From Candidatus Curtissbacteria bacterium RIFCSPLOWO2_02_FULL_40_11 (GTDB lineage Bacteria > Patescibacteriota > Microgenomatia > Curtissbacterales > GWA2-41-24), in assembly GCA_001776505.1 (NCBI GenBank), contig MFBV01000032.1, forward strand, positions 1 to 53,558: DNA of 53,558 nt, written 5' to 3'. Below the pieces are notes generated by a model. It was not told the DNA's origin. It saw only the letters and a program-made list of their open reading frames with translations, and ran no database searches. The stretch's first letter is position 1. Each line of letters begins with the position of its first letter. Below are positions 9,058 through 26,897 of this stretch, piece after piece. The position numbers and the translations under genes are program-made.

Positions 9058-9061
9058 AGAG

Positions 9062-9793
9062 ATGTCACTGGAAATTTATTCCAAGGATCCCCCCATTAGT
9101 TACAACTCTGAAATAAAAAGCAGAGATAGATACTTTTTTGCTCTGATTTCGATTATTGGCTTAGGAGCAGTTTTATTCGCAACTTGGCCTTTTTTCGTTT
9201 GGCAAATGAGTACTCTTCCAAGGCTTTCTGGCGGGTTCGATGATGCTCCTATTCCCCAAGCAAGAGTGCTTTCCGCAAAAAGCCCCAATTTAGAAAATAT
9301 TCAAGTAGTTCAAGATGCCGATGGGTTCTCTTATTTTATCCCCACAAATTTATCAGAGAATGATCCGAATGATGAGAACCGTTCTAAAGAATTTTCAGTT
9401 TCTATTCCTAAACTCAATATTAATAATGCTATTGCAAAAGTTGATAGTCTCGATTTTCGCAAAAACCTATCTCATTTTCCAGGAACAGCTCTCCCCGGAG
9501 AAGTCGGCAACTCTTTCATTACCGGCCATTCGGTACTGCCCCAATTTAGCGATCCGGAAAACTACAATGCAATTTTCACCAAGCTCTCCGATTTAGAAAT
9601 TGGTGACAAGGTTAATGTGGCAAGAGACGGAAAACAATATCAGTACATAGTCCAATACTCAAAAGTCGTAAACCCAAAAGATCTTTCGGTGTTAGCACCG
9701 ATTAGCGAAAATGCCAAAAACCTGACTCTTATGACCTGCGTACCACCCGGCACAAATATCAAGCGATTGGTTGTCATCACGAGTTTAATATAA
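9062..9793 (+). CDS. sortase family transpeptidase (ATG 9062 preferred over the track start 9002)
   Basis: N-terminal TM, catalytic His context FITGHSVL, TLxTC motif LTLMTCVPPG, downstream conserved Arg (KRLVV). Confidence 0.85.
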   Translation: MSLEIYSKDPPISYNSEIKSRDRYFFALISIIGLGAVLFATWPFFVWQMSTLPRLSGGFDDAPIPQARVLSAKSPNLENIQVVQDADGFSYFIPTNLSENDPNDENRSKEFSVSIPKLNINNAIAKVDSLDFRKNLSHFPGTALPGEVGNSFITGHSVLPQFSDPENYNAIFTKLSDLEIGDKVNVARDGKQYQYIVQYSKVVNPKDLSVLAPISENAKNLTLMTCVPPGTNIKRLVVITSLI

Positions 9794-9818
9794 TGCGTTT
9801 TCATAAATTTAATGCAAT

Positions 9819-9852
9819 TTGACAAATTTAATGTAAAATGTTAAATTTAATA
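9819..9852 (+). promoter_or_regulatory. promoter TTGACA-N17-TAAATT of the toxin-antitoxin operon, overlapped by AAATTTAAT direct repeats
   Basis: -35 at 9819-9824 and -10 at 9842-9847; ATG at 9854 gives a leaderless or near-leaderless mRNA; AAATTTAAT at 9805, 9824 and 9843 (19-bp phasing). Confidence 0.55.
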
Positions 9853-9853
9853 C

Positions 9854-10186
9854 ATGCATTTTGCAAGTGTTACTTCCCAAGGTCAGGTTAGCATTCCCGC
9901 TAAAATAAGAAAAAAGTTAAAATTGGATAAAAGAAAAAGGGTCATTATAACCGAGGAAAACGGCAAGATTCTTATGGAGCCAATAAAAGACATTTTAGAA
10001 TTAGCTGGTTCTCTCAAAGCCCCTAAAAATATTAAGGCTTATCAAGGCAGGGAAGCATTTGAAAATTATTTGGCACACCGCGCAAACAAGGGTATATCCA
10101 AAAAAGCTCTCAAACAACTTGGATTCCAAGAAACATCGCCTCATATTTTTACCCCGCCAAAGACAAAATCTGCCCAAAGTAAATAA
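9854..10186 (+). CDS. AbrB/MazE/SpoVT-family antitoxin
   Basis: N-terminal swapped-hairpin signature VTSQGQVSIPAKIRKKLKL; 1-nt overlap (TAATG) with the downstream PIN gene. Confidence 0.85.
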   Translation: MHFASVTSQGQVSIPAKIRKKLKLDKRKRVIITEENGKILMEPIKDILELAGSLKAPKNIKAYQGREAFENYLAHRANKGISKKALKQLGFQETSPHIFTPPKTKSAQSK

Positions 10187-10575
10187 TGGCGCAGATTATA
10201 ATCGATACGAATATTTTACTAAGATATATCCTGCGTGACATAGAAGGTCAATATTTGATATCCAAAAAGTTTTTTACCCAAGCAAAGTTAAAAAACATCC
10301 AATTAATAGTACCGCAAATAGTCATCTTCGAAATAGTTTTCAATTTGAATAAATTTTACGATTTCGACAAGGAGCAAATAATTAAAACGATCGAAGATCT
10401 ACTCTCTACCAACTATTTGAACGTAGAGGATTGGGAGATTTTCAATATGGCCGTTGGTATTTATGAAAATAATTCTATAGACTTTGTAGATTGTTTCATC
10501 ATCGCAAAGGCGCAAATTTCTGGAGCAAAAATTTTTAGCTTCGATAAGGATTTCAAAAAACTTACAAAAACCTAA
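10186..10575 (+). CDS. vapC: PIN-domain toxin (VapC-like ribonuclease)
   Basis: IIIDTNILLRY (Asp 1), FEIVF (Glu), DFVDCFIIA, FSFDKDFKKL, all typical PIN acidic positions. Confidence 0.85.
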   Translation: MAQIIIDTNILLRYILRDIEGQYLISKKFFTQAKLKNIQLIVPQIVIFEIVFNLNKFYDFDKEQIIKTIEDLLSTNYLNVEDWEIFNMAVGIYENNSIDFVDCFIIAKAQISGAKIFSFDKDFKKLTKT

Positions 10576-10644
10576 CTCTCATGACCTGCGTCCCCCCCCG
10601 GAACCAATATCAAGCGGTTAGTTGTAATAACTAGCTTAATATGG
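10565..10644 (+). pseudogene. ghost copy of the sortase 3' end (last 25 codons), frameshifted in a C8 tract and with the stop lost
   Basis: Aligns to 9715-9793; after removing one C it encodes KNLTLMTCVPPGTNIKRLVVITSLI, identical to the live C-terminus; 12 synonymous and 0 nonsynonymous differences. Confidence 0.9.
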
Positions 10645-10688
10645 GTTACGGTTTCCATGTGCATAATCATGTCCGAAAATCGCCCAAT

Positions 10689-10716
10689 TTGCATTTTCAC
10701 TAAATCATAGTAGAAT
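10689..10716 (+). promoter_or_regulatory. promoter TTGCAT-N16-TAGAAT upstream of trpC
   Basis: -35 at 10689-10694 and -10 at 10711-10716, 14 nt before the ATG. Confidence 0.5.
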
Positions 10717-10730
10717 GACATTCGCACTTT

Positions 10731-11507
10731 ATGACCCACGAAGTACCTCAAGGTAACGAAAGTCCCAGACGTGTTCTCGAAGAAATTCTTGCTAACAAGA
10801 GAAAAGAGATTGCTCTAAGGTATCCGGAAAAACCTAGCAGTTTTATAGAAATGTTTAGAGATGCCGATTGGCCCGTCGTAATTGCAGAGATAAAACCAAA
10901 ATCTCCTTCAGCAGGTAAACTAATTGATGAAAACCCCGTCAATTTAGTACAAAAATTTCAGCAAGGAGGAGCAGGAGCTATTTCAGTTCTTACGGATAAA
11001 AAATATTTTGGAGGTAGTCCTGAATTATTTTTGCAAATTCGCGAAGCGACAAAATTACCGATGCTTTGGAAAGATTTTGTCATTAGCGCAGATCAGCTAG
11101 TAGATGCCCAACAAAGGGGAGCCGACGCAGTGCTTTTAATAGTTACAGCCTTAAGGAGACAAAATGTAGATTTGAAAGCAATGATTAACTTTTCAAAAGC
11201 TCTTGGTCTTACACCTGTGGTGGAAGTCCATGACAATCGGGAAAGAGCTGAAGCTCTTATGGCTGGAGCAAATATCATTGGTGTAAATTCGCGCAATTTA
11301 GATACTTTGCAAGAGAATCCTTTTCTGGCTTTAGAAGTTTTGAGCCAGATACCGAGTGGTCGAATAGCGTTACTTTTTTCCAGCATTAAATCAAGGGAAG
11401 ATGTTGAGAAAGCAAGACAAGCTGGAGCAAAAGGTGTTTTGGTAGGGACGTCAATTTTAAAAGCTCCTGACCCAGTTGAAAAGTTAAGAGAGCTGACTTC
11501 AAGTTGA
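10731..11507 (+). CDS. trpC: indole-3-glycerol phosphate synthase
   Basis: VIAEIKPKSPSAG, ISVLTDKKYFGGS, GVNSRNL motifs; TIM-barrel size (258 aa). Confidence 0.88.
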   Translation: MTHEVPQGNESPRRVLEEILANKRKEIALRYPEKPSSFIEMFRDADWPVVIAEIKPKSPSAGKLIDENPVNLVQKFQQGGAGAISVLTDKKYFGGSPELFLQIREATKLPMLWKDFVISADQLVDAQQRGADAVLLIVTALRRQNVDLKAMINFSKALGLTPVVEVHDNRERAEALMAGANIIGVNSRNLDTLQENPFLALEVLSQIPSGRIALLFSSIKSREDVEKARQAGAKGVLVGTSILKAPDPVEKLRELTSS

Positions 11508-11555
11508 CAAAAAGTTAATCCTCATCAACAATACCTTGATGATTCTTGGCATTGA
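11504..11555 (+). repeat. ghost copy of the ruvX promoter plus first 6 codons (direct repeat of 12526-12577)
   Basis: 48 of 52 nt identical; first 30 nt, including TTGACA, are identical; encodes MILGID then diverges to a stop (11539-11589). Confidence 0.9.
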
Positions 11556-11563
11556 CTCTAAGT

Positions 11564-12490
11564 TTATAAACCCCTATATGTTGTTCTGAAGTTCTTTAGT
11601 GCAACAAGTAGATATTGTTGATCAGAAGCAAACCATTTTTTCATAGTAGCTACTGCGTTTCTAATGTCTTCAAATTGATTACCATTTTCCTTAGCACTAC
11701 TCCAGTCTACGAGGCTAACCTTATTTGTTTTAGGGTCAATTAATAAATGCCTTCTGTCAAATCTATCAAGGTATGCCAGATCTAAGAAATGGGTTTTTCG
11801 AAGTGCCACACCAAAAGCAGCTCCAACAATATCTGGGTGTTCAATTGCTAATTCTTCAGCAGCTATACCACCTATAAATTTCTCTACAATCCAATTATTA
11901 TTACTTTCAATAACTTCTGGTCCAACAATTCCGGCAACTTTTTTAGCAATACTTTCTTCTCCATCATGTAATGTTCTCTTAATTACGACGCCAGATTCTT
12001 CGTCAATAATAACTGCAACTAAACCTCTTTCATCGCCATAATCCAACAAAGTCATCGGCGGCTTTTCTTCTTTTGCTTTTAATCTCTTGGCAAGTTCAGG
12101 AACACTCTCAATTATGTTATGAGCAGAATTCCATAAGTGAATGTTAAAAGCCAAAGTTACACTTGGCACAACGTATTCCCAAAGAGGTTTTAAATCAAAT
12201 TCAATCCTCAACTTTTCTGCTAACGGTGGAAACCAGCGAAGAATTTCTATAGAAGGCTCTGTAAGTGATAATACCAAGGGATAGTGCTGGTGATATTCTT
12301 GTCTATCCATCGCAAATAAAGCCACCTTTGTTTGATAAAAAACATTTTTTAAAGTTACAGGTTGTCCTGTTTCTTTGCATTTATTTACCGCATCTTGGAA
12401 TAAATCCAGCAAAAATTCCGGATCTTCATCTAATACTTCAGGATTTTCATTATATATATCTGCATATGTAAGTTGTTCACCAGTAGCCAT
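11564..12490 (-). CDS. orphan protein, C-terminal half possibly an atypical kinase-like fold
   Basis: 308-aa ORF on the opposite strand between the two ruvX repeat copies; VVIKRT (VAIK-like), HFLDLAYLDRFDRRHLLID and SLVDWSSA loosely resemble Kdo/RIO/APH-type catalytic and metal-binding loops. Confidence 0.5.
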   Translation of the reverse strand: MATGEQLTYADIYNENPEVLDEDPEFLLDLFQDAVNKCKETGQPVTLKNVFYQTKVALFAMDRQEYHQHYPLVLSLTEPSIEILRWFPPLAEKLRIEFDLKPLWEYVVPSVTLAFNIHLWNSAHNIIESVPELAKRLKAKEEKPPMTLLDYGDERGLVAVIIDEESGVVIKRTLHDGEESIAKKVAGIVGPEVIESNNNWIVEKFIGGIAAEELAIEHPDIVGAAFGVALRKTHFLDLAYLDRFDRRHLLIDPKTNKVSLVDWSSAKENGNQFEDIRNAVATMKKWFASDQQYLLVALKNFRTTYRGL

Positions 12491-12525
12491 TTTTTATCGC
12501 TAATTATACTTATAATTATTTAAAT

Positions 12526-12577
12526 TTGACAAAAAGTTAATCCTCATCAACAATATCCTCATGATTCTTGGAATTGA
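12526..12577 (+). repeat. live copy of the ruvX promoter/5' end repeat
   Basis: TTGACA at 12526-12531; ATG of ruvX at 12561. Confidence 0.9.
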
Positions 12578-12944
12578 TTTAGGTCAAAAAACAACAGGCC
12601 TTGCAATATCCGAAGGCGAACTAGCAACTTCTCACTCAACTATTACTCACAAATCTTTAACAGAAGCAGTTTCAAAAGTAATTTTGTTTTGTGATCAAAA
12701 CCAGGTGGATACAGTGATAATTGGCTACGTTGAGGGTAAAAATAAAATCTATTTTGAAAAGTTTCGTGAGATGTTAGAAAATAAAAACTCTAATCTAAAA
12801 ACTGTAATGTGGGACGAAACCCTAACAACTAGACAAGCAATATCTATAATGGTTAAACTCGGTGTGCCAAGACAGAAGCGACGCGAAAAAGAACACGAAG
12901 TGGCAGCCAGTTTAATTTTACAAAGTTATTTAGACAGTAAATGA
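12561..12944 (+). CDS. ruvX: YqgF/RuvX putative pre-16S rRNA nuclease / Holliday junction resolvase-like protein
   Basis: MILGIDLGQKTTGLAIS N-terminus, DETLTT motif, about 127 aa. Confidence 0.85.
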   Translation: MILGIDLGQKTTGLAISEGELATSHSTITHKSLTEAVSKVILFCDQNQVDTVIIGYVEGKNKIYFEKFREMLENKNSNLKTVMWDETLTTRQAISIMVKLGVPRQKRREKEHEVAASLILQSYLDSK

Positions 12945-13144
12945 TTAAGAAAATTTTCGCACCGGTGCAAGCATGGATTTTACTTCAAGGGAAGTGTGTA
13001 GGTTGTGGGAAAAGTTTAACTTTAGCCATAAAGAATGATCGAAGAGACAACAGACAACAAGTTATATGTTCTTGCGGCAGAATTTTTATATTCGACAAAA
13101 GAAACGGGAGATACCGCAGAGCACTCCAAAAAGAGATAATCTAA
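12941..13144 (+). CDS. small zinc-ribbon protein
   Basis: CVGCG ... CSCG cysteine pairs; ATGA overlap with ruvX and TAATG overlap with mltG suggest translational coupling. Confidence 0.5.
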   Translation: MIKKIFAPVQAWILLQGKCVGCGKSLTLAIKNDRRDNRQQVICSCGRIFIFDKRNGRYRRALQKEII

Positions 13145-14148
13145 TGTTAGCAAACAAAAAAAGATTAGTTATTTTTGCAATTCTTTTTGTTTTACTAATA
13201 GTTACTCCAGTTATTACCAATATTTATTATAAATTTTTACTAAAACCAGCTGTGCCAAATTCCAAAGATGAAAAAATTTTTGTAATTGCACCCAGAACAC
13301 CTGTTATTGAAATCGCCCAAGATTTAAAGCAAGACAATTTAATTAAGAACCCTCTCGCCTTTAGGTTTTTAGTCTCACGTATGGGGATTGGTAAAAATAT
13401 CCAGGCAGGAGATTTTCGTCTTTCTCCATCAATGTCATCCCGTGAAATTGCCGACGAGTTGACTCATGGTGTAATTGATGTTTGGATTACTTTCCCAGAA
13501 GGTTTGAGAATTGAAGAGCAAGCAGCAAGCATTGAAAAAGCTCTAAATTTTGAATCTAATGATCTTTATCAGTTTAATGTAGTTGATTACATTGAGCTTG
13601 CAGAAGAAGGTTACATGTTCCCGGACACATATTTAATTCCCAAAGATGCAACAGCAAGCGATATTGTAGCTCTCCTGCGAAATACTTTTGACGAAAAAGT
13701 AGATGCGGAAGTATTTGCAAGCGGCCGCAAAAACGGTTTAACAGAAAATCAATTAATCACTCTAGCCTCGCTTATCGAAAGAGAAGCAAACACAAGCGAT
13801 GAAAAACCAACAATTGCGGGAATTTTAATGAACAGATTAAACTCCGGTACAGCTTTGCAAGTTGACGCAACCGTCCAATACGCTAAAGGTTTTGATGAAT
13901 CAAATAAGACTTGGTGGCCGCAAATAACCCAACTTGACTATCAACAAGTTCGCTCAAATTACAACACGTATCGCACGGCCGGTTTACCACCAGGCCCAAT
14001 TGCTAGCCCTGGTTTTGATTCGATTCAAGCGGCAGCAAATCCCCAAGACACGGAGTTCTTTTATTATCTCCACGACTCTGAAGGGAACATCCATTATGCA
14101 AAAACAATTCAAGAACACAATCTAAACGTCCAGAAATATATTCTTTAG
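13144..14148 (+). CDS. mltG: endolytic murein transglycosylase MltG/YceG (ATG 13144, not the track start 13066)
   Basis: N-terminal TM, LASLIEREA, YNTYRTAGLPPGPIASPG motifs. Confidence 0.88.
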   Translation: MLANKKRLVIFAILFVLLIVTPVITNIYYKFLLKPAVPNSKDEKIFVIAPRTPVIEIAQDLKQDNLIKNPLAFRFLVSRMGIGKNIQAGDFRLSPSMSSREIADELTHGVIDVWITFPEGLRIEEQAASIEKALNFESNDLYQFNVVDYIELAEEGYMFPDTYLIPKDATASDIVALLRNTFDEKVDAEVFASGRKNGLTENQLITLASLIEREANTSDEKPTIAGILMNRLNSGTALQVDATVQYAKGFDESNKTWWPQITQLDYQQVRSNYNTYRTAGLPPGPIASPGFDSIQAAANPQDTEFFYYLHDSEGNIHYAKTIQEHNLNVQKYIL

Positions 14149-14156
14149 TACAAATA

Positions 14157-14185
14157 TTGACAAATGCCAGCCCAAATGATATAAA
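14157..14185 (+). promoter_or_regulatory. strong promoter TTGACA-N17-TATAAA for rpoBC
   Basis: -35 at 14157-14162 and -10 at 14180-14185; about 190-nt leader before the rpoB GTG. Confidence 0.6.
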
Positions 14186-14378
14186 ATAGACTACATAACC
14201 CATAAGATGGGGTACTTTTGTACCTTCATCTTTTTGTTGTGTAATCGAATTTCTTGGTGGATAATCCCAACAACTAGATTTAAATAGACGCCTTGCCAGT
14301 CTTCAGGGGTATCCCTTTTCGCTCTTTGCTACCATTGGCACAAGAGTCTGTTTATTTATATAAAACGAGCAAAATCCT

Positions 14379-17300
14379 GTGGCTAATCGAACCTATTGGG
14401 GACAAATAAAAAGCACAAATCTTCCATCCCTTGATCTGGTTAAAATTCAGAGGGATTCATTCGATGATTTCTTGGAAAATGGTATCCAAGAAGTCTTAGA
14501 TGAAGTTTCTCCAATTGACGATTTCACTGGCAAAAATTACACACTAGTTTTCGGAAAATATAGCATCGGCAAACCTAAACACACTCCGGAAGAGGCTCTG
14601 AAAAAAGGTGTCACTTACGATGCTTCCCTAAAAGTAGAAGCAACAGTTATCAATAAACAAACTGGTGTTAAAAATTCGCAGGAAGTATTTTTGTGCGATT
14701 TACCTATCATGCTCAAAAAAGGAGCGTTCATAATCAACGGTATTGAAAGAGCTGTTGTTACTCAGTTGGTACGAGCCCCGGGCGCTTATTATTCTGCAGA
14801 AATTGATCCTTCTTCGGGGAAAATGCTTTACAGTTGTGAAATCCGTCCACTCCGAGGTTCTTGGTTAGAGTTTGCTATCACAAAAAATGATATCATCACC
14901 GTCAAAATAGACAGACGAAGAAAGTTTCCGGTCAGCACATTTTTGCGTGCAATAGGTTTTTCCGAAACCGAACAAATTCTTGAACTCTTCAAACCAATCC
15001 TCAACGAAAACTCCCAAAAACTTTTAAACAACACCCTAGAAAAAGACACAACCGAATCTCAAGAAGAAGCGCTGCTGGAAATTTATCGAAGAATGAGGCC
15101 AGGTGATCATGTCATATTAGACAATGCCAAAGCCTTAATAGAAAATATGTTCTTTAATCCAAGAAGATATTCGTTGGGTAAAGTTGGTAGGTACAAAATC
15201 CAAAAACGGCTGAAAAGGCTAAAAGAAAAACTTTCTGAGAGCGAAGAAAATAAAACTAGCCAAGTACTGACAACCTGGGATTTTGTCTCTTCTATTGCTT
15301 ATCTTTTCGAATTAATAGCCGGTAACGGTAGGCTCGATGACATTGATCATCTCGGTAATCGTCGTCTCAGGAGAGTAGGTGAACTCGTTGCTCAAAATGC
15401 ATTCAGAATCGGAATACTCAGAATTGAAAGAGTTATTAAAGAAAGAATGAGTCTGACACCAATAGAAGAAGATATACCTTCTCCAACAACTCTTATCAAT
15501 GCCCGGCCAATTATTTCTGCAATCAATGAATTTTTTCGCTCCTCGCAACTTTCCACAATTTTAGATCAAACAAACCCACTTTCCGAAGTGGACAATTTAA
15601 GAAGATTAACAGTAATGGGTACTGGTGGAATCGCGAGAGAGAGAGCAGCATTTTCTATTAGAGACATTAATCATTCTCAATACTCCCGAATTTGTCCAAT
15701 CCGCTCACCGGAAGGCCCAAATATTGGGTTAGTTACTTACATGTCTTTGTATTGTAGAGTAAACGATCACGGATTTTTAGAAGCACCCTATAGAACAGTG
15801 GTAAAGGAAAAAGGTGGCAAAGCCAGAGTAACAGATGAAATTGTATATTTAACAGCAGACGACGAAGAGGAATATGCAATTACTCATGCTCAAGTTCCTC
15901 TTGATGATAAAGGTTATTTTGTCGATGATCGTGTGCCGGTAAGAAATAAAGGGGAATTTACAACAGCTTCAAGCAACGAAGTTAATTTTATAGATGTTGT
16001 TCCGCGTCAAGTAGTGGGTACATCGGCATCACTAATTCCATTTTTGGCACATGATGAGGCAAACCGAGCTTTAATGGGTACTCACATGCAGTGTCAAGCA
16101 GTCCCCCTTCTTTTACCGGAATCTCCCATCGTAGGTACTGGTATGGAGGAAGTAGTTGGTACGAATATGGGTAGAGCAGTACTAGCGCCGGAAGATGGCA
16201 CTGTTACTTATGTAGACAGTAAGAAAATTATTTTTAAAACTAAAGCTAATGGAAAATCTCCGAGTAAAACTGTAACTGTACCTATTCAAAAATTCTCCAG
16301 ATCACCTCAAAGCACTTGCTACAGCCAAAGACCAAAAGTAGAAATGAGTCAAAAATTTAAAAAAGGCGATATATTAGCTGACGGTACCGCAACAGATGGG
16401 GGGGAACTTTCTCTAGGCAAAAACCTGAATATTGCATATATGAGTTTTGATGGTCTTGGTTATGAGGACGCTATTGTCATTTCCGACAGACTCGTTAGAA
16501 AAGATACTCTTACTTCCATCCACATAGAGGAATATGAAACATCGGTAGTTGAAACTAAATTAGGACCGGAAGAAACAACCAGGGATATCCCAAATGTTTC
16601 AGAAGAAGATCTGGCAAATCTTGATGAAAATGGAATTGTTGTTATGGGAGCAGATGTAGGTCCAAACGATATTCTAGTGGGTAAGATTGCTCCAAAAGGT
16701 GAAACAGAACTAACCGCAGAAGAAAGATTATTGAGAACAATTTTCGGCGAAAAAGCCAGGGAAGTAAGGGATACATCACTTAGAGTTCCTCATGGAGAAA
16801 AAGGGACAGTAATTGATATAAAAATTCTAGCTCGAGATAAAGGTGACGAATTAGAACATGGAGCACTCAAGAAAATAATTGTCAAAGTTGCGCAAATGCG
16901 CAAAGTTGTTGTTGGAGACAAATTAGCAGGTCGCCACGGTAACAAAGGTGTAATTTCCAAAATAGTTCCGGCAGCCGATATGCCATATATGGAAGATGGA
17001 ACTCCGATCGACATAATTATTAGTCCTCTCTCAGTTTTATCAAGAATGAATTTAGGGCAGCTTCTTGAAACACATTTGGGTTGGGCCGCAGAAAAACTAA
17101 ACTACAAAGTTGCCTTGCCTGTTTTTGAACACGTGGACGAAGAGAGAATTGACAGCGAACTAAAAAAAGCAGGTCTTCCAACCGATGGAAGGACTACCCT
17201 TTACGATGGGCGTACTGGTTTAGAGTTTGACAGACCAATTGTAATTGGCAAAGCGTATATTTTGAAACTAATTCATATGGTTGAAGATAAGACTCATGCT

Positions 17301-20700: not shown

Positions 20701-21433
20701 AGGTGGAATTGTAGGTCTAGATATTACTCAGGGGCTACCTAGAGTCGAAGAGCTATTTGAAGCAAGGACTCCGAAATATATTGCTCAAATTTCGGAAATT
20801 TCGGGGAAAGTAAAAATCGAAGAGAAAGCTGACGAAATTGTTGTCAAAGTTAAGAGCACAAATCTAAAACCTCAAGTCGAAAAAGAATATTCTATTCCAC
20901 CAACAGCCGAGTTTTCTGTTGAAGATGGCCAACTTATTGTAGCGGGGACGCCTCTTTCAACAGGATATTTGGATGTCAAAGAAGTTCTATCAATTTCAGG
21001 TTTAAGAGCTGCTCAAAAATACATAACCAATGGTTGTCAAGAAGTATACGAAAGCCAGGGGGTAGCTATTAACGACAAGCATTTCGAAGTGATTGTCAAG
21101 AAAATGAGTGAAAAAGTGAAAGTAGAAACTTCTGGCGATACAGTACTTCTACCTGGTGAATTAATTGATAAGAATCGTTTTCAAGAAGAAAATGCTAAAG
21201 TAATGGCAGAAGGTGGAGAACCTGCAACAGCTCAGGTAATTCTCTTGGGTATTACAAGGACTGCACTTTACACAGAAAGCTTTCTATCTGCTGCTTCATT
21301 CCAAGAAACTACCAGAATTCTCACAGATGCTGCTATAGAGGGTAAAATAGACAGGCTATTAGGTCTCAAAGAGAATGTTATTATTGGAAGATTGATCCCA
21401 ACCAGCGAACAAAGAGCTACTATAAAGAATTAG
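17747..21433 (+). CDS. rpoC: DNA-directed RNA polymerase subunit beta'
   Basis: Zn finger CYCGKYKRIRYRGIICDKCGVEV, catalytic NADFDGDQMAVH, trigger-loop and bridge-helix blocks; K/E-rich coiled-coil insertion after the clamp. Confidence 0.98.
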   Translation: MNELIDFDSLKLTLASQDDIKTWSFGEVTKPETINYRTLKPEKDGLFDERIFGPTKDWECYCGKYKRIRYRGIICDKCGVEVTQSRVRRERMGHITLAAPVVHSWFFKGSPSKLGLLLDISPRSLDAVVYFASYLIIEVDDEKKKDVLKKLQAELEKKRKEQQVLLKQKLDEEEKATKKEVTQMKSKGKVKEQTDIKIEELQLNMRQRQAHLREESSREISRLEEIYKNIMDMVKSVKVFDLLSEEEYLKLYDYNAESFLKVGMGAETVLKALEKFDLSKLALTLREEIASSTGQKHIKATKRLRVVEGMRKAELSPNWMIIKILPVLPPDLRPMVQLSGGRFATSDLNDLYRRVINRNNRLKKLIELGAPDIILRNEKRMLQEAVDALIDSQRVKTTRASQELRSLSDMLRGKQGRFRQNLLGKRVDYSGRSVIVVGPELRLNQAGIPKEMALEMFKPFILREIIARGYAPNVKSAKHYLERRSSEVWDILDEITKNHPILLNRAPTLHRLGIQAFYPILIEGNAIRIHPCICAGFNADFDGDQMAVHVPLSEKSKEEAHRLMLAARNLVRPSDGSPITLPNKEMALGAYYLTSIDEKLPDYDSIFADEDEVLLALNTEKIALRQKINVFIGKKVILTTTGRVLFNKQLPQSMRFINETISAGRIKQLINVAIDKFPEEEVTDLIDRLKELGFEGATHSGLSVSVFDCMIVDDKEKIIQKADKEVEGIEKNFSVGLITKDEQKRLSQEVWLSVTNELADLTWRSLREDNSIKIISDSGGSRATAEQIKQLSAMRGLVTDPSGQIVPLPIKSNFREGLSVFEYFTSARGARKGLADRAIKTAESGYLTRRLVDVAHDAIIRLKDCGTKESIVVSKSDKRQMPFTLRLFGRVVADDIKSPKGKKLLVKANTLLEEEHVKAIDEANVEEVNIRSPLICEARYGLCALCYGRDLVSRELVSIGTPVGVIAAQSIGEPGTQLTMRTFHTGGIVGLDITQGLPRVEELFEARTPKYIAQISEISGKVKIEEKADEIVVKVKSTNLKPQVEKEYSIPPTAEFSVEDGQLIVAGTPLSTGYLDVKEVLSISGLRAAQKYITNGCQEVYESQGVAINDKHFEVIVKKMSEKVKVETSGDTVLLPGELIDKNRFQEENAKVMAEGGEPATAQVILLGITRTALYTESFLSAASFQETTRILTDAAIEGKIDRLLGLKENVIIGRLIPTSEQRATIKN

Positions 21434-21478
21434 CAAAACTCGACACTTCATAAAATGGTTGATATAATTCGTCGATCT

Positions 21479-21575
21479 AATTTAATTTGAATCTAGCTTT
21501 GCTTGTTCAAATTTTTCCTATAAGGGAAAGAGGAATATTAAGGAGAAAACCGTAGGTTGTCTCCTTAAAGTAGTT
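21479..21575 (+). promoter_or_regulatory. conserved structured leader/operator, copy 1 (upstream of rpsL)
   Basis: About 85 percent identical to 41447-41547; hairpins TTTGAA..TTCAAA, TTCCT..AGGAA, AAGGAGA-AACC-GTA-GGTT-TCTCCTT. Confidence 0.75.
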
Positions 21576-22076
21576 ATGCCAACAGTAAATCAATTAGTAA
21601 GATACGGCAGAAAATCGAAAGAAAAACGTATTAAAGCCACGGCTCTTCGCCGAGCTTTCAATACAAACACTAATCGATATGTTTTTTACCCATCACCTCA
21701 AAAAAGAGGAGTTTGTGTAATTGTAAAAACAATGACTCCCAAGAAACCAAATTCTGCACTTCGAAAAGTTGCTCGAGTTCGACTGTCAAACAAACAGGAG
21801 GTTACAGCGTACATTCCTGGTATGGGTCATGAGCTTGCGGAACATTCTATTGTAATGGTACGTGGGGGAAGAGTCCAAGATTTACCGGGAGTGAAATATC
21901 ACATTGTTCGCGGTAAATACGACACTACCGGTGTTGCAAATAGAAAGCAAGGCAGATCACTATATGGAACTAAAAAATCTGGAGCGGTAAGTACAACTCA
22001 AGCAGCAGTATCTGCAGGAGCTTCTGTTGCAACTCAAGATCAGCCTAAACAAGAATTAGCGGGAGGAGAATCATAA
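21576..22076 (+). CDS. rpsL: 30S ribosomal protein S12 with about 30-aa C-terminal extension
   Basis: [37 protein letters not shown] motifs. Confidence 0.97.
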
Positions 22077-22573
22077 TGCCAAGAACAGGTAAAGTTGAAA
22101 GAAGAAAAACTTCCCCAGATCCTCTTTATCAAAATCTATTAGTTGCAAAACTTATTAACAAAGTTTTGAAACAGGGCAAAAAAACCATTGCTCAAACTAT
22201 AGTTTATGAATCTTTCAATAATATTCGGGCCGGCGGCAAAGACCCACTGCAAACTTTTGAAAAGGCTGTAGAAAATGCTACCCCTAAAATGGAAGTAAGA
22301 CCTAGGCGTGTAGGTGGTGCTTCTTATATGGTGCCGATGGAGGTTAGAGGACCTCGTCGCCAAGCTCTTGCTCTAAATTGGCTTATTACAGCAGCCCGAA
22401 ATCGCCAACTACCAGAAGTAAAAGATCGGCCAAAAAATAAACCAGTTATGATAACCAAACTTTCACAAGAAATACTGGACGCTGCCAATGGTGAAGGCGG
22501 AGCAGTTTCCAAAAAAGCAGAAATGCACAGAATGGCAGAAGCGAATAAGGCGTTTGCCCACTTTAGATGGTAA
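22076..22573 (+). CDS. rpsG: 30S ribosomal protein S7
   Basis: PDPLYQN, VEVRPRRVGGASYMVP, MAEANKAFAHFRW. Confidence 0.97.
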   Translation: MPRTGKVERRKTSPDPLYQNLLVAKLINKVLKQGKKTIAQTIVYESFNNIRAGGKDPLQTFEKAVENATPKMEVRPRRVGGASYMVPMEVRGPRRQALALNWLITAARNRQLPEVKDRPKNKPVMITKLSQEILDAANGEGGAVSKKAEMHRMAEANKAFAHFRW

Positions 22574-22580
22574 TTATCCA

Positions 22581-23030
22581 ATGTCAGAAACTAAAGCCGA
22601 GGAAACCAAAGTAGAATCCCGAAGGGTTACAAGCTTCGATCAGTTAAAGCCAAGAAAATTATATAGATTGCATTCTCATGACAGAAACGGCCAGAGAGAA
22701 GTAGTTGAAGTTAACACAAAAGATTTTTACATAGAAGAACCGGTTGACCCAAATGCACGTGAATTCAGATTTAAAGGATTAATTTATGTGAGGATACCAA
22801 ATAAAATTAAGACAGAAGGTTTAGATCTATTTGATTCGATTAGGTTACACGAATTTGGATTAGTATTTGTTAAAGGTTCCAATGAGGAACTTATAAGACA
22901 AGGGCATAAAGCTCTATCTGATTCCTATATTGTTGTTGAAGATCCATCAAAGGGAATTGGTAGCCCAACACATTCAGATCCTAGTTACAATAATTGGGTG
23001 GAGGAAATTAGCGACAGGGTAACAAAGTAG
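22581..23030 (+). CDS. hypothetical protein (island gene 1; ATG 22581)
   Basis: 149-aa ORF 7 nt after the rpsG stop; no recognisable motif. Confidence 0.5.
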   Translation: MSETKAEETKVESRRVTSFDQLKPRKLYRLHSHDRNGQREVVEVNTKDFYIEEPVDPNAREFRFKGLIYVRIPNKIKTEGLDLFDSIRLHEFGLVFVKGSNEELIRQGHKALSDSYIVVEDPSKGIGSPTHSDPSYNNWVEEISDRVTK

Positions 23031-23065
23031 CTTGTAATACAAGTTTTGCTGCCTAAAATGCCTAA

Positions 23066-23819
23066 AAGGGACGGTCCTTGAAAAAGTTGTTATATCAACC
23101 TAAATCAAGCAATTTTATTTAGTTTTAGCCCTCATATATTTCTTTTGTGCATATGTAGCAAATTTAACGTTCCCCATTACAGCCTCTTCCTTCTCAAATA
23201 ATTTTTCAATAGCACTCAAATCCTCTGAAATTCCGTTAATGATAAATTTCTCATATTCCTTCCTTGAGTTTTCAGTTTTCCCAATCAATCTAATGATATT
23301 TTTATCAAGGAAATGGAGTTGTTCTTTACCAAGAGCTTCTCTGATACTGCTGTATTTGTAATCTAATGGATTTTTGGCTAAGTTAGCTTTAACCGGATTT
23401 AGGTAGATATACTGGGAAAGTTTTAAGAAATATGAATCATTTTCAATGAGGATACTTTTAAATCTGTTTTGAAACACAGGTCCGAAGTGTTCATATTTTC
23501 GATTGAAATACATTGAATAACTTGTTCCCAAGGACGCCATTATCTTTGAGATTGGAACTTTGCGCGTCTGAATCGAAATATGGAAATGGTTTGGCATTAG
23601 ACAAAAAGCATAAAGAGAATGGTCGTACTTGTTTTTTAAGTCATTAAGTTTTCTTAAAAAGAATTGATAATCAGGTTCTGAAATAAAAATAGGTTGTTTG
23701 TTGATGCCCCTATTAAAGACGTGATAGAAAGCATCTGTGAATACGAACCGTGCGCCTCTAGGCATAGAATGTATGTTAATTTTAGCCTATTGCATGAGGC
23801 TTTTCAAGGACCGTCCCTT
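23066..23819. mobile_element. minimal IS200/RayT-like unit: Y1 transposase gene bracketed by perfect 19-bp inverted repeats
   Basis: AAGGGACGGTCCTTGAAAA at 23066-23084 and its exact reverse complement at 23801-23819; each repeat contains a small imperfect palindrome. Confidence 0.8.
23115..23765 (-). CDS. HUH Y1 transposase, IS200-like / REP-associated (RayT-like, COG1943)
   Basis: YHVFNRG, HUH motif LMPNHFHI, catalytic-Tyr context YIYLNPVKANL. Confidence 0.85.
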   Translation of the reverse strand: MPRGARFVFTDAFYHVFNRGINKQPIFISEPDYQFFLRKLNDLKNKYDHSLYAFCLMPNHFHISIQTRKVPISKIMASLGTSYSMYFNRKYEHFGPVFQNRFKSILIENDSYFLKLSQYIYLNPVKANLAKNPLDYKYSSIREALGKEQLHFLDKNIIRLIGKTENSRKEYEKFIINGISEDLSAIEKLFEKEEAVMGNVKFATYAQKKYMRAKTK

Positions 23820-23846
23820 CATACTTCATAGTTTTGGTTTTGTATG

Positions 23847-23875
23847 TTCACTAATATTTAGCCCTATGGTATAAT
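23847..23875 (+). promoter_or_regulatory. promoter TTCACT-N17-TATAAT with extended -10 TG
   Basis: tatggTATAAT at 23865-23875, just outside the right inverted repeat, reading toward fusA. Confidence 0.55.
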
Positions 23876-23964
23876 CCTCGCTTGTCGTAGTTGAAAAACC
23901 TTAACGATTTCTGATCTAATGGAAATTAGGTAAAAAAACTTGTCCTGATAGGCAACGACGAAGA

Positions 23965-24231
23965 ATGGCAATAACACGCACACAAAAATTAAAACAGCTA
24001 AAGGTAAAGCTTCACGATCTTGAAGAAGTTAAGCTAAAAGATGCACTTGCAAAATATGGTGAAGCTTATCAAGATTCGGGTGGAGCTTGGCAGGAAAATG
24101 CCGCTTGGGAGCTAGCAGACGAAGAAATTTCTGTTCTTCGTGCTATGATTCAAGAAGTCAAAAAAGAAATTAAGGCATTGGAGAACCCATCCTCAATATC
24201 CACTACTGCCAAAAATATAAAATCCAAATAA
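23965..24231 (+). CDS. Gre-factor N-terminal coiled-coil-only protein (no C-terminal globular domain)
   Basis: GGAWQENAAWELADEEISVLRAMIQEVKKEI aligns with the GreA tip and helix 2 ([30 protein letters not shown]); 88 aa in total. Confidence 0.5.
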   Translation: MAITRTQKLKQLKVKLHDLEEVKLKDALAKYGEAYQDSGGAWQENAAWELADEEISVLRAMIQEVKKEIKALENPSSISTTAKNIKSK

Positions 24232-24241
24232 AAATTTTACT

Positions 24242-24571
24242 ATGCCTAAAGAAGCTGGACAACAGCAATATTGTATTACAATAGATCGAGACCAGGTGCC
24301 TTCAATTAGTGTCCTAGAAGCTGTATCAGAAGTTGCACTATTAGGCGCAATCAGATTAGTTGAGCTTCTTCCCTACATTGATGCAAAAAACGATGAAACT
24401 TTTCAAAAATTCAAGTCTGACGTAAAAAAGATTATAGCAATGGCGATTATGTCCCTCGAGGTGCGTTTCGTAAAAGGTAGAGGCTGGGAAGTTCCAGAAG
24501 ATCATCCGATGGTAGACCCTTTGAGTTTAGAAGAAATGAAATCACGAGCAATTCAAATCCATCAAATCTAA
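24242..24571 (+). CDS. hypothetical protein (island gene 4)
   Basis: 109-aa ORF with no recognisable motif. Confidence 0.45.
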   Translation: MPKEAGQQQYCITIDRDQVPSISVLEAVSEVALLGAIRLVELLPYIDAKNDETFQKFKSDVKKIIAMAIMSLEVRFVKGRGWEVPEDHPMVDPLSLEEMKSRAIQIHQI

Positions 24572-24576
24572 ATATT

Positions 24577-24654
24577 ATGGCGGACAAAACAAACAGACTT
24601 TATCCACTCGACCAAATCCGCAATAAATCAGAGGAGACTAGAAAATACAATTAG
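24577..24654 (+). pseudogene. ghost fusA 5' end (16 codons) fused to unrelated sequence
   Basis: MADKTNRLYPLDQIRN vs live [16 protein letters not shown] (13 of 16 aa, 31 of 48 nt); diverges exactly before the G1 motif and stops after 25 codons. Confidence 0.8.
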
Positions 24655-24662
24655 AGACAACA

Positions 24663-26801
24663 ATGAAGGATAAGACTACAAGACTCTACCCATTAGATAG
24701 AATAAGAAATATCGGAATCATTGCCCATATCGACGCCGGAAAAACAACAACTACAGAACGAATTCTTTTTTACACTGGAAAAACTTATAAACTTGGCAAC
24801 ATCGATGAAGGTACAACCATCACCGATTGGATGGCTCAGGAAAAAGAAAGAGGAATTACTATTGTTTCAGCAGCTGTCACAACATTTTGGAAAGCAAAAA
24901 GCGGTCCTTATAAAGATACCGATACCAGGATAAACATTATCGATACGCCGGGGCACGTTGACTTTACAGCCGAAGTCGAACGGTCGCTGCGTGTACTAGA
25001 TGGAGGAGTGACTGTTCTTGATGCAGAAGAAGGAGTTCAATCACAATCGGAAACCGTTTGGCGCCAAGCCGACAAATACAAAGTACCCAGAATTTGCTTC
25101 ATTAACAAGATGGACAAATTAGGAGCAGATTACTTCGCAACTCTCAAATCAATTCGTGATAAATTAAATGCTCCGGCAGTTCCCTACAATTTACCAATTG
25201 GTACCGAAAATGATTTCAAAGGTGTTGTCGACCTACTTTCACAAAAAGCTTATGTCTGGGAAACGGGAGTGGACGGTACTGGGAAAGAATTTAAAGAAGT
25301 AGATATTCCCCATGATATGAAGGCAGATGTTGAAAAATACAGAAATGAACTCATAGAAAAAATCGCGGAAACAGATGATACTCTTATAGAAAAATATCTT
25401 GGCGGTGAAACAATAGAAATTGATGAACTCAAAAAAGCCCTCAGAGGAGCGGTCATCAAGTACAAAATTGTTCCGGTTATGGCAGGTTCTTCTCTAAGAA
25501 ATAAAGGTGTTCAACCACTCCTGGATGCGATTGTTGAATATCTGCCTTCTCCCAAAGATATAGAAAAAGTTGAAGGTGAAAATCCCAAAACCAAAGAAAA
25601 AGAGACTCGAAAATTAGTAACAGAAGAACCGTATTGCGGCTTAGCTTTTAAAATACAAGTCGATCCTCATGTTGGAAAACTTACATTTGTGAGAGTATAT
25701 TCAGGTACTTTAAAATCCGGATCTTCAGTCACAAACACTACTAAGAGCAAAAAAGAAAGAATCGGCAGAATACTTCTGATGCACGCAAATACCAGAGAAG
25801 AAATACAGGAGGCATATGCCGGAGAAATCATTGCAATAGTCGGTCTAAAATCAACAGCCACCGGGGATACCCTCTGCGATGATCAACACCCTTTAATTCT
25901 CGAGTCGATCACATTTCCCGATCCGGTCATATCGCTTGCTATCGAACCAGAAACAAAATCCGATCAAGAGAAATTAGGTTATGCCCTTGGACGTCTGGCC
26001 GAAGAAGATCCGACTTTCAAAATTAAAGGCGATCCGGAAACCGGACAGACAATAATTTCCGGGATGGGCGAACTCCACCTGGAAATTATTGTTGACAGGA
26101 TGAAGCGTGAGTTTTCTGTAAACGCTCAAGTCGGTCGTCCTCAGGTAGCTTATCGGGAAACTATCAAAAAAGAGGCAAATGGCGAAGGTAAGTATATTCG
26201 TCAGTCAGGCGGGCGCGGGCAGTATGGACATTGTTTCTTAAAAGTAGAACCAAAACCAAGAGGAGAAGGTTACGAGTTTGTCTCTACTATTAAAGGTGGG
26301 GCAATTCCTTCAGAATTTATCCCGTCAATTGAAAAAGGTGTCATAGAAAAATTGGATCAGGGAATTCTAGCAGGTTACCCACTGGTCGACATGAAAGTTA
26401 CAGTTTATGATGGAAGCTTTCATGAGGTTGATTCTTCGGACATTGCCTTCAAGATTGCAGGGTCTATGGCTGTCGAAGATGCCGCCAAAAATGCCCAGCT
26501 TACGCTTCTCGAGCCGATTATGAAGTGCGAAGTTACAGTTCCGGAAGACTTTATGGGAGACGTAATTGGAGATCTTTCAAGCAAACGTGCCCAAGTCCAT
26601 GGTACTGATCATCATGGAAACAGTGTAATTGTTAACGCTTTAGTACCCCTTGCCGAAATGTCAGGTTACGTTACAACCTTAAGATCAATGACCCAAGGCC
26701 GCGGATCCGTCTACCTTGAACCCTCCCACTACGAAGAGGTACCAACGAATATAGCTGATAAGATAATCTCCAAAGTTAAAGGAGAAAAAAGCGAATCCTA
26801 A
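24663..26801 (+). CDS. fusA: elongation factor G
   Basis: [24 protein letters not shown] and domain IV/V blocks. Confidence 0.98.
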
Positions 26802-26897
26802 AAATTTGTCTTAGATCCTGAGCGAGTGAAACGAGTCGAAGGACTGATAAGATTGTTGCTAAAAGCAAAGGGGAAAAAGAAGAAAGTTGATTAGGTC

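Follow-up and report, generated by a model that had tools for sequence, protein, structure and literature searches.

How do bacteria with tiny genomes gain new genes between genes that they cannot afford to break? Members of the candidate phyla radiation (CPR), or Patescibacteria, have very small genomes and few classical mobile elements, yet their accessory genes vary, and the route of gene gain is an open question. It is raised in concrete form by a contig of 53,558 nt from Candidatus Curtissbacteria bacterium RIFCSPLOWO2_02_FULL_40_11 (MFBV01000032.1 of GenBank assembly GCA_001776505.1), referred to below, at its full length, as the window. At several places in the window, accessory genes adjoin a short dead copy of the end of a core gene. 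We call such a copy a ghost and its counterpart in the working gene live. We consider it fairly probable that ghosts are footprints of recombination between diverged haplotypes at hot spots (sortase|ruvX, rpsG|p88|fusA, and fusA|tuf, where p88 is a small gene described below), by a process resembling homology-facilitated illegitimate recombination (HFIR). Ghosts would then record, at the nucleotide level, the integrase-free entry of cargo between essential genes.

Ghost termini in the Curtissbacteria contig

The N and C termini of every open reading frame (ORF) in the window were compared with the whole window by tblastn. Four ghosts were the best nonparalogous matches, at 38.9, 34.9, 31.0, and 25.6 bits, against a background maximum of 23.3. 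Three of them had been described in a first-pass annotation and were confirmed in position and content: a copy of the sortase 3' end at 10566 to 10644 (site a), a copy of the ruvX promoter and first codons at 11504 to 11555 (site b), and a copy of the fusA 5' end at 24577 to 24624 (site c). The fourth, a copy of the fusA 3' end at 26846 to 26890, adds to these and lies next to no cargo.

The ghosts differ from their live counterparts almost only at synonymous positions. At site a, a repeat of about 80 nt with 82% identity, 25 of 25 codons specify the same amino acid, and the 12 differences are all synonymous, with no nonsynonymous change (a comparison in the manner of dN/dS, using the proportions of differing synonymous and nonsynonymous sites, gave a pS of 0.67 and a pN of 0.017). 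The fusA 5' ghost encodes MADKTNRLYPLDQIRN and retains 13 of 16 amino acids of the live fusA start, which lies 39 nt downstream, at 31 of 48 identical nucleotides, while the fusA 3' ghost encodes DKIVAKSKGEKEES followed by a stop codon. In a random-mutation control, amino acid changes as few as those observed occurred in 0 of 20,000 trials for each of the three coding pairs tested (sortase 3' end, fusA 5' end, and fusA 3' end; P<5e-5 per pair). Because the divergence is almost only synonymous, each copy must have diverged under coding constraint, and neutral decay of duplicates made in situ is rejected, as the first-pass annotation had argued. Judged by this pattern, each ghost appears to have evolved as part of a working gene in another lineage.

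A trivial origin, whether a chimera of two strains or a tandem duplication in situ followed by neutral decay, has in our estimation a negligible probability. Repeats of 50 to 80 nt can mislead assemblers, and the first-pass annotation had named a chimera as an outcome that would undo its reading. The region from 9000 to 13000, which holds sites a and b, is 100% identical in 9 of 10 independent assemblies made from different samples with different assemblers, and at site c gene order and ORF lengths are unchanged in 8 of the 8 places shown, which stand for 24 contigs; assembly chimerism is excluded on these grounds. The joints, moreover, share less than 10 nt, which is below any assembler k-mer size. 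In situ tandem duplication with neutral decay is ruled out by the same control as above, at P<5e-5 per site.

The source of the window is a Curtissbacteria population in the Rifle aquifer, and the trpC protein encoded in the window is identical to that of GCA_001776455.1. Exact-protein look-ups of trpC and rpsG returned only the same clonal population, within which no cargo polymorphism was found, and a scan of genome contigs for RpoC found only three other Curtissbacteria species, the remaining matches being distant. The GC content of the cargo equals that of the core genes, which indicates that the donors are relatives.

The gap between sortase and ruvX

Synteny across Microgenomates gives the ancestral gene order as p725-sortase-ruvX-p67-yceG-rpoB-rpoC-rpsL-rpsG-(p88)-fusA-tuf. 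The sortase gene of Woesebacteria and of two Curtissbacteria loci, L091 and L100, is directly followed by ruvX, and its stop codon overlaps the -35 hexamer of ruvX; L100 also has the closest sortase found (80% amino acid identity). Beside these empty sites there are haplotypes in which the gap holds trpC as sole cargo (sortase-trpC-ruvX in L094), a toxin-antitoxin (TA) cassette without a ghost (L117), a deacetylase gene with a decayed LOG-like gene (L013), or a 5-kb island (L101). Two further loci, L098 and L099, are 94% identical in nucleotide sequence over p725-sortase and carry different cargo. Since its contents vary between genomes in this way, the gap is an insertion hot spot, and relatives do hold the empty sites and alternative cargo for which the first-pass annotation had proposed to look. 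Different whole-gene cassettes thus lie between the same two conserved genes without mobility genes, which is how minimal mobile elements are recognized.

In the window, the gap and its borders are occupied as follows.

9716..9793, plus strand: live sortase 3' end, last 25 codons and TAA (Pfam Sortase, E 2.5e-23)
9794..10565, plus strand: AbrB/MazE-VapC(PIN) TA cassette with operator/promoter, AbrB at 9854-10186 and VapC at 10186-10575 (Pfam)
10566..10644, plus strand: ghost of the sortase 3' end, codons 239-263, a direct repeat of 9716-9793
10645..11507, plus strand: trpC block, a leader and indole-3-glycerol-phosphate synthase (IGPS) at 10731-11507 (Pfam IGPS, E 6e-57)
11504..11555, plus strand: ghost of the ruvX promoter (TTGACA-17-AACAAT) and first 6 codons, a repeat of the live ruvX start
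11556..12525, minus strand: p308 cassette, an orphan 308-aa gene at 11564-12490 with its promoter (no family match)
12526..12577, plus strand: live ruvX promoter and first 6 codons, with ruvX at 12561-12944 (Pfam RuvX)

The first-pass annotation had taken sites a and b for separate insertions into a sortase-trpC-ruvX backbone, a view that we replace. The ancestral order is sortase-ruvX, and trpC, flanked directly by both ghosts, is itself cargo: it is lacking at the empty sites L091 and L100 and stands in other contexts in L092 and L093. The segment from 10566 to 11555, which consists of the ghost sortase end, trpC, and the ghost ruvX start, is laid out like a sortase-trpC-ruvX haplotype, for instance L094, and the trpC stop codon TGA overlaps the ghost TTGACA in the window just as it does in L094 and L092. 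Locus L101 comes from the same aquifer sample and from a different species. Its outer layers are those of the window, with sortase, AbrB, VapC, and a sortase ghost on the left and a ruvX promoter ghost, p308 (minus strand), and ruvX on the right; between its ghosts, where the window has trpC, it has five to six other genes. The common outer layers, together with trpC as cargo, show that one nested island has sites a and b as its inner borders.

Compared with L092 and L093, trpC contains tracts of about 130 nt at 100% identity amid flanks of 70 to 80%, a mosaic that points to ongoing homologous exchange among these lineages. In L093 the trpC 3' end runs into a sortase ghost, with the microhomology TCAA(A)AG at the joint. 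The extents of the ghosts vary: ruvX ghosts comprise 2 (L101, of the promoter-only type), 6, or 12 codons, the longest standing beside a different cargo gene in L092, and sortase ghosts comprise about 10 codons (L093, from about codon 254) or 25 codons (from codon 239). Boundaries that differ between occurrences argue against a fixed attachment (att) core.

As a separate observation, trpC is the only gene of the tryptophan pathway at the sortase|ruvX hot spot in several Curtissbacteria.

The joint between VapC and the sortase ghost

The sortase terminus KNLTLMTCVPPGTNIKRLVVITSLI is kept in many Curtissbacteria sortases. Its ghost in the window has one extra C in a run of C (at about 10599), which shifts the frame, and TGG in place of the live TAA stop, and its first bases provide the stop codon of VapC. 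Orthologous AbrB/VapC genes follow the sortase gene in L098, L101, and L117, and their promoter is found in L118. In L117 the same AbrB/VapC genes, with the same operator-rich promoter, lie between sortase and ruvX free of any ghost. Compared with L101, AbrB/VapC has 76 to 77% nucleotide identity, the sortase gene 76%, and p725 71%. The cassette is as diverged as the backbone and ghost-free in L117, so it is old at this site and did not arrive with the sortase ghost.

How the ghost came to lie behind VapC can be followed at the joint itself, the one joint for which both parental sequences can be reconstructed (the VapC parent being taken from L117). The VapC end reads AAGCTCGCAAAATCAAGACTTTAA in ghost-free L117. 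In the window, L098, and L101, VapC runs as far as GCAAAA and then continues as ACCTAACTCTCATGACC, that is, as sortase from codon 239 on; the sortase gene at the matching point reads GGCAAAAACCT. The 6 nt GCAAAA are common to the native VapC end (CTCGCAAAATCAAGACTTTAA, L117) and to sortase (GGCAAAAACTTAACT) and fall exactly at the joint between VapC and the ghost. Such a joint at 6 nt of microhomology is a signature of illegitimate joining.

The window is collinear with L098 and L101 from alaS to the start of the ghost and unrelated to them thereafter. The ghosts of the three loci are in different states: that of L101 is full length with four amino acid changes, that of L098 is shortened by a deletion and has a Cys-to-Tyr change, and that of the window has no amino acid change at all. 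Homology between the window and L098 ends at the run of C that carries the window's frameshift, and between the sortase ghosts of the window and L101, 28 of 33 positions are identical to the left of that point and 27 of 45 to the right. These numbers are small, and they suggest that import of the trpC block from a lineage with trpC may have replaced the right part of an old sortase ghost, which itself provided the left homology arm.

The AbrB promoter region (9794-9853) has repeated AAATTTAATG motifs that look like operators. It is the most conserved noncoding stretch between species, at about 92% identity to L098, and is also found in L117 and L118.

The p308 cassette and the start of ruvX

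At site b the repeat extends over 58 nt (11498-11555 versus 12520-12577) at 90% identity. Both copies hold the promoter-like site TTGACA-17-AACAAT and an ATG with five further codons, and their differences are unevenly spread, with 0 of 33 positions on the left and 5 of 19 on the right. The p308 gene between them has 90% nucleotide identity to its counterpart in L101, whereas alaS, p725, sortase, AbrB, VapC, ruvX, and yceG have 70 to 77% (ruvX and yceG, 70 to 72%). The tract of high identity has a sharp left edge at 11556/7, which is the right end of the ghost, spans p308 and the live ruvX promoter, and fades within the first ruvX codons. A tract at 90% in a backbone at about 72% indicates a recent exchange between the two species that included the live ruvX 5' region, and since the live ruvX start lies inside this tract, the ghost would be the displaced resident copy. 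The edges of the tract fit a homologous arm in ruvX and a nonhomologous left end, and in L101 the ruvX ghost is joined to p308 at CTCA. The -35 element of the p308 promoter (TTGTCA, minus strand) overlaps that of live ruvX, forming a divergent promoter unit (12503-12554), which explains why p308 and the live ruvX promoter travel together.

The first-pass annotation had proposed that each cargo arrived with a piece of a relative's core gene. This holds for p308, with the amendment that the piece which came along is the live ruvX start and the ghost is what it displaced; it does not hold for AbrB/VapC, given the ghost-free copy in L117.

Flanking repeats had also led to the proposal of Campbell-type integration, in which small circles with cargo and 50 to 80 bp of a relative's core-gene terminus would enter by a single homologous crossover without a dedicated recombinase. 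Direct repeats do flank AbrB/VapC and p308, and a cassette flanked in this way can loop out by homologous recombination and reenter elsewhere. For p308 the same topology is possible, as the tract covers the cargo and one repeat and the uneven differences within repeat b are what a crossover inside the repeat would give. In L117, by contrast, AbrB/VapC occupies this site without repeats, and its age matches that of the backbone; delivery on a circle together with a piece of sortase is therefore ruled out, and the microhomology at the joint between VapC and the ghost calls for an illegitimate step regardless. Ghosts that lie next to no cargo (those of the fusA 3' end, of the rpsG 3' end in L028, and of the rpoC 3' end in L047, described below) have nothing to circularize, and at site c the cargo lacks flanking repeats and the ghost adjoins the live copy. 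A length of 50 to 80 bp at about 80 to 90% identity is also very short for a RecA crossover. Given these misfits to AbrB/VapC, to the cargo-free ghosts, and to site c, we regard Campbell-type integration as an unlikely general explanation.

The p308 protein has no match in Pfam, NCBIfam, or PHROGs, and its family consists of only 5 clusters. An AlphaFold model built from 5 sequences was poor (pLDDT 56), and a profile search against PDB sequences gave nothing below an E value of 0.18. No repeat-free carrier of p308 was found at the sortase|ruvX site; a distant homologue occurs elsewhere in the genome in L106/L107. The ghost ruvX promoter (11504-11532) has kept its consensus and is oriented antisense into p308.

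The two ends of fusA

Site c lies between rpsG and fusA, and together with the fourth ghost it comprises the following features around fusA.

23965..24231, plus strand: p88, small GreA-N-like gene, 88 aa (tblastn matches at the same position in L011, L012, L013, and L047)
24242..24571, plus strand: p109, orphan ORF between p88 and fusA (no family match; absent from relatives, where p88 abuts fusA)
24577..24654, plus strand: fusA 5'-end ghost of 16 codons (24577-24624), continuing as an ORF of 25 codons in all (scan and codon comparison)
24663..26801, plus strand: live fusA, elongation factor G (EF-G)
26846..26890, plus strand: ghost of the fusA 3' end, 14 codons and stop, 45 nt after the fusA stop

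The fusA 5' ghost begins 5 nt after the p109 stop codon. Spacing of this operon-like kind suggests that p109 and fusA were contiguous in the haplotype from which the ghost originated. The 3' ghost runs directly into the tuf promoter region, and in ghost-free L011 the live fusA end does the same; the ghost therefore looks like the resident end, and the live fusA 3' end with the following 43 nt looks like the incoming piece. From this arrangement, fusA appears to be bracketed by remnants of another fusA allele. No tract of high identity was found in fusA relative to L011, L012, and L013.

The 5' ghost has kept its ATG, and its 25-codon ORF stops 8 nt before the live ATG; as an upstream ORF it could couple translation of fusA to that of p109.

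Ghost termini in other genomes

A general scan for ghost termini covered 43 low-GC loci of Patescibacteria type (782 kb), high-GC loci being excluded for their spurious low-complexity matches. Matches of at least 24.5 bits numbered 16 within 3 kb on the same strand versus 6 everywhere else. For six conserved genes, 9 ghosts were found among 354 termini in low-GC loci versus 0 among 306 termini in other loci; this count leaves out self-hits where loci are truncated, an rpsL hit of low identity (L035), and the paralogy of the EF-G and elongation factor Tu (EF-Tu) G domains. Ghosts of rpsG, fusA, and rpoC ends were present in five other Microgenomates loci, and none was found in 37 higher-GC loci of the same sample.

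In L012 (14731-14968) the last eight rpsG codons and the stop codon occur three times (KAFAHFRW, with the stops TAA, TAG, and TAA), and all differences are synonymous. Both ghosts have the same starting codon. Spacers of 99-100 and 57 nt, rich in GC and palindromic in part, separate the copies, and the next gene, on the opposite strand, is patatin-like. The same locus has a fusA C-terminal ghost after its own fusA, equivalent to that of the window. An rpsG ghost 30 nt after the stop codon in L028 (14680-14773) has such changes as Ser AGT/TCG and Arg CGT/AGG. In L047 (14680-15821), fusA is followed by an orphan gene, a Phd/YefM-like gene, and a RelE-like gene (TA labels assigned from a reading of the ORFs) and then by a fusA ghost; the same locus has an rpoC C-terminal ghost (11061-11185) that abuts rpsL, with a 77-nt shift and a live copy that ends in a new 10-aa tail. 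In L016 (9628-11922), two orphan genes lie between fusA and a fusA ghost. Seven ghost/live or ghost/ghost pairs from these other genomes were dominated by synonymous differences (all P<=0.003).

Several of these ghosts stand without cargo, namely, those of the fusA C terminus in the window and L012, the rpsG C terminus in L028, and the rpoC C terminus in L047. Recombination at gene ends, and not cargo delivery in itself, therefore appears to be what leaves ghosts behind.

Recurrence at the same few genes, and the common starting codon of the two rpsG ghosts in L012, would also be expected if ghosts were remnants or satellites of site-specific elements whose att sites overlap core-gene ends, which supply a replacement end and are moved by a tyrosine or serine recombinase acting in trans. 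The end of the target gene is indeed functionally replaced, live and ghost copies encoding the same peptide, and a pattern of synonymous-only differences between live and ghost is known from the e14 prophage at icd/icdC (PMC13626634). Against this, scans with Pfam, NCBIfam, and PHROGs and the gene lists revealed no integrase in more than 10 sortase|ruvX haplotypes or in the island at site c, apart from one Y1 transposase. Ghost lengths vary, and apart from the rpsG start in L012 there is no fixed attachment core; the longest identical core shared by the repeats at site a is 11 nt. The cargo, finally, consists of heterogeneous single genes. We judge an origin from site-specific elements to be improbable.

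The rpsG ghosts bear on a further possibility as well, which is that a homing-type nuclease cuts conserved termini, that homeologous repair copies the terminus together with the cargo, and that synonymous changes block recutting. The saturated synonymous change in L028, including the Ser and Arg codons mentioned above, the identical start of the two ghosts in L012, and the highly conserved peptides that form the targets would suit this explanation. No cargo protein, however, matched a nuclease or homing-endonuclease family in Pfam, NCBIfam, or PHROGs (p308 has a low-confidence model and matched no PDB sequence), and several ghosts are without any cargo, so that we hold homing to be very improbable.

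A number of loci used here (L014 to L016, L018, L019, and others) are titled "uncultured Gammaproteobacteria/Pseudomonadales." They have about 60% RpoC identity and, where covered, synteny of Microgenomates type (for example, p725-sortase in L014 and L015 and ruvX in L015). These taxonomic labels look wrong, and the loci look Microgenomates-like.

A recombination model for the ghosts

By definition, HFIR combines anchoring by homology at one end with illegitimate joining at the other end (PMC3240628). Both are seen at the loci described here, where homology is one-sided and collinear up to the joint and the joints have short microhomologies (GCAAAA in the window, TCAA(A)AG in L093, and CTCA in L101). 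The p308 tract that ends inside ruvX and the mosaic of trpC are consistent with homologous exchange through flanking genes.

The model that we favor would begin with the uptake of DNA from a related Curtissbacteria lineage that has other cargo at the same hot spot. This DNA would pair homologously, through RecA, inside the conserved core gene on one side. On the opposite side, a few bases of microhomology within the resident gene's terminal codons would allow an out-of-register joint; the event would be a case of HFIR or of one-ended homeologous repair. In such compact genomes, with spacers of 10 to 60 nt, only joints that spare both essential genes would survive, so that the usual outcome would be a short duplicated terminus with one live copy and one ghost. 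Because each copy was functional in a different lineage until the event, the two would differ only synonymously. Once formed, a ghost would be an internal copy of the hot-spot border and could serve as a homology arm for later, ordinary homologous exchange of the neighboring cargo, as we suppose for the trpC block and the p308 cassette. Ghosts without cargo would be the expected leftovers where the replacement of an allele ended imprecisely.

Literature on other CPR bacteria makes the uptake step plausible: natural competence is established for Saccharibacteria (PMC10187176), and genes for competence and recombination are present in Patescibacteria (PMC12455944). The model has to suppose that Curtissbacteria are competent too, and this is one of several points that weigh against it. 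According to the summary of experimental systems in PMC5361080, HFIR is orders of magnitude rarer than homologous recombination. No donor was found at the nucleotide level for any ghost, for which the first-pass annotation had proposed to look (none matched among eight sortase 3' ends from relatives, seven live and one a full-length ghost, with both segments compared), so that we infer the direction of every transfer. The joint between VapC and the ghost is common to species whose backbones are about 72% identical, yet the window's ghost has no amino acid change; the later import of the trpC block is invoked to account for this, on suggestive evidence. A site-specific or functional element, more than joints made at random, would account for the identical first codon of the rpsG ghost pair in L012. 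It would likewise better suit the fusA C-terminal ghosts of the window and L012, which share some similarity in the upstream noncoding sequence yet differ mostly synonymously.

A stronger version of the model is conceivable, but we find it doubtful. Ghosts could belong to a recombinase-free cassette system typical of ultrasmall CPR genomes, in which the displaced core-gene end travels with the cargo as a portable homology arm. If this were so, ordinary homologous recombination could carry any gene that adjoins a ghost from one species to another, and the nesting of new copies of the hot-spot border would enlarge the islands. Such a system would explain why ghosts are codon perfect, as they would be repeatedly refreshed from live genes, and why they appear to be enriched in Microgenomates.

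Relation to known systems

Cassettes that lack a recombinase, are bounded by direct repeats of a core-gene 3' end, and form tandem stacks are known from the accretion of cis-mobilizable elements (CIMEs) and integrative and conjugative elements (ICEs) at the 3' end of fda in Streptococcus thermophilus. CIMEs keep attL and attR sites that are recognized by the ICE integrase, whereas no such att sites or integrase are evident here.

The closest mechanistic parallel is HFIR in naturally transformable Acinetobacter, Streptococcus pneumoniae, and Pseudomonas stutzeri (as defined in PMC3240628), with which the ghosts share a one-sided anchor with a microhomology joint, cargo beside a conserved gene, and the lack of a cargo-encoded recombinase. 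They differ in that the process is read from the natural genomes of uncultivated CPR bacteria, the joints in terminal codons duplicate instead of deleting, and the products are apparently reused as arms. Displaced 3' ends and orphan arrays are also found at rearrangement hot spot (Rhs), contact-dependent inhibition (CDI), and type VI secretion system (T6SS) loci, where, in the Vibrio cholerae model, an incoming module takes the place of a resident gene's end and pushes the old 3' end downstream, arrays being built up by successive events, much as here (PMC5361080). HFIR has been proposed for the displaced effector ends in V. cholerae and at Rhs loci as well (PMC5361080). Those loci are polymorphic toxin genes under diversifying selection, whereas the genes concerned here are housekeeping genes (sortase, ruvX, rpsG, fusA, and rpoC), and the displaced piece encodes the same peptide.

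The insertion of prophage e14 in Escherichia coli, in the account given in PMC13626634 with reference to Hill et al. 1989, likewise provides a replacement gene end, so that live and ghost copies of icd (icd/icdC) flank the insert and differ mainly synonymously. By that account, e14 encodes a site-specific integrase and its attachment site is fixed, whereas here no integrase was found, ghost boundaries differ between occurrences, and the cargo ranges from 0 to 1 kb. Neisseria minimal mobile elements, by the definition quoted in PMC3082526, resemble the sortase|ruvX site in that two conserved genes bracket varying cassettes without mobility genes. As described in that source, they are exchanged by homologous recombination after DNA uptake, and replacement is clean, without duplicated flanks, whereas out-of-register joints leave ghosts and nested islands in the loci studied here.

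The components are thus known ones: HFIR, displaced gene ends, minimal mobile elements, and the replacement of gene ends by integrating elements. What appears to be new are codon-perfect ghosts of housekeeping termini, their recurrence at the same core genes in uncultivated Microgenomates, their nesting, and the movement of a ghost-bounded cassette between species. A limited search of the literature found no description of such ghosts in Patescibacteria.

If the pattern is general, ghost termini could serve as a computable marker for recombination hot spots, donors, and recipients in uncultivated lineages. They would also call for care in annotation, since ghosts can create upstream ORFs, altered C termini, and spare promoters. 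For the competent and cultivable Saccharibacteria, the pattern would make a testable prediction.

Other features of the rpsG-fusA region

Two further features lie between rpsG and p88.

22581..23030, plus strand: p149, orphan ORF directly 3' of rpsG (no family match; absent from L011, L012, and L013)
23066..23819, minus strand: Y1 (IS200/RAYT-like) transposase gene at 23115-23765 with perfect 19-nt inverted repeats (Pfam Y1_Tnp)

Conserved between rpsG and fusA in Curtiss- and Daviesbacteria, p88 is a resident gene and not cargo; the additions in the window are p149, the Y1 element, and p109. Neither p149 nor p109 has a match in Pfam, NCBIfam, or PHROGs, and p88 has a weak match to GreA_GreB_N, the N-terminal coiled coil of GreA.

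The Y1 element qualifies the statement of the first-pass annotation that no integrase or recombinase is present at any of the three sites: this is true of the sortase|ruvX haplotypes, whereas site c has a transposase gene (23115-23765, minus strand). The gene matches Pfam Y1_Tnp (PF01797, E 1.2e-12) and scores 71.5 bits for NCBIfam REP_Tyr_transpos, below the cutoff of 80, so that its subfamily is uncertain. Its inverted repeats (23066-23084 and 23801-23819; AAGGGACGGTCCTTGAAAA) are found nowhere else in the window. We considered the transposase as the agent that made the ghosts and rejected it, as the inverted repeat is present only at the element's own ends. Y1 transposition is also not known to make long duplications, and the element is probably unrelated to the ghosts. 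A Y1 homologue follows fusA in the Levybacteria locus L027.

Upstream of rpsG, the rpsL product (21576-22076) is 166 aa long and may have a C-terminal extension of about 30 aa that is rich in Ala, Ser, and Gln. In 7 of 12 loci with a match, the alignment covers only residues 1 to 134/140, and in L011, L014, L015, L022, L035, and L047 it reaches residues 144 to 166.

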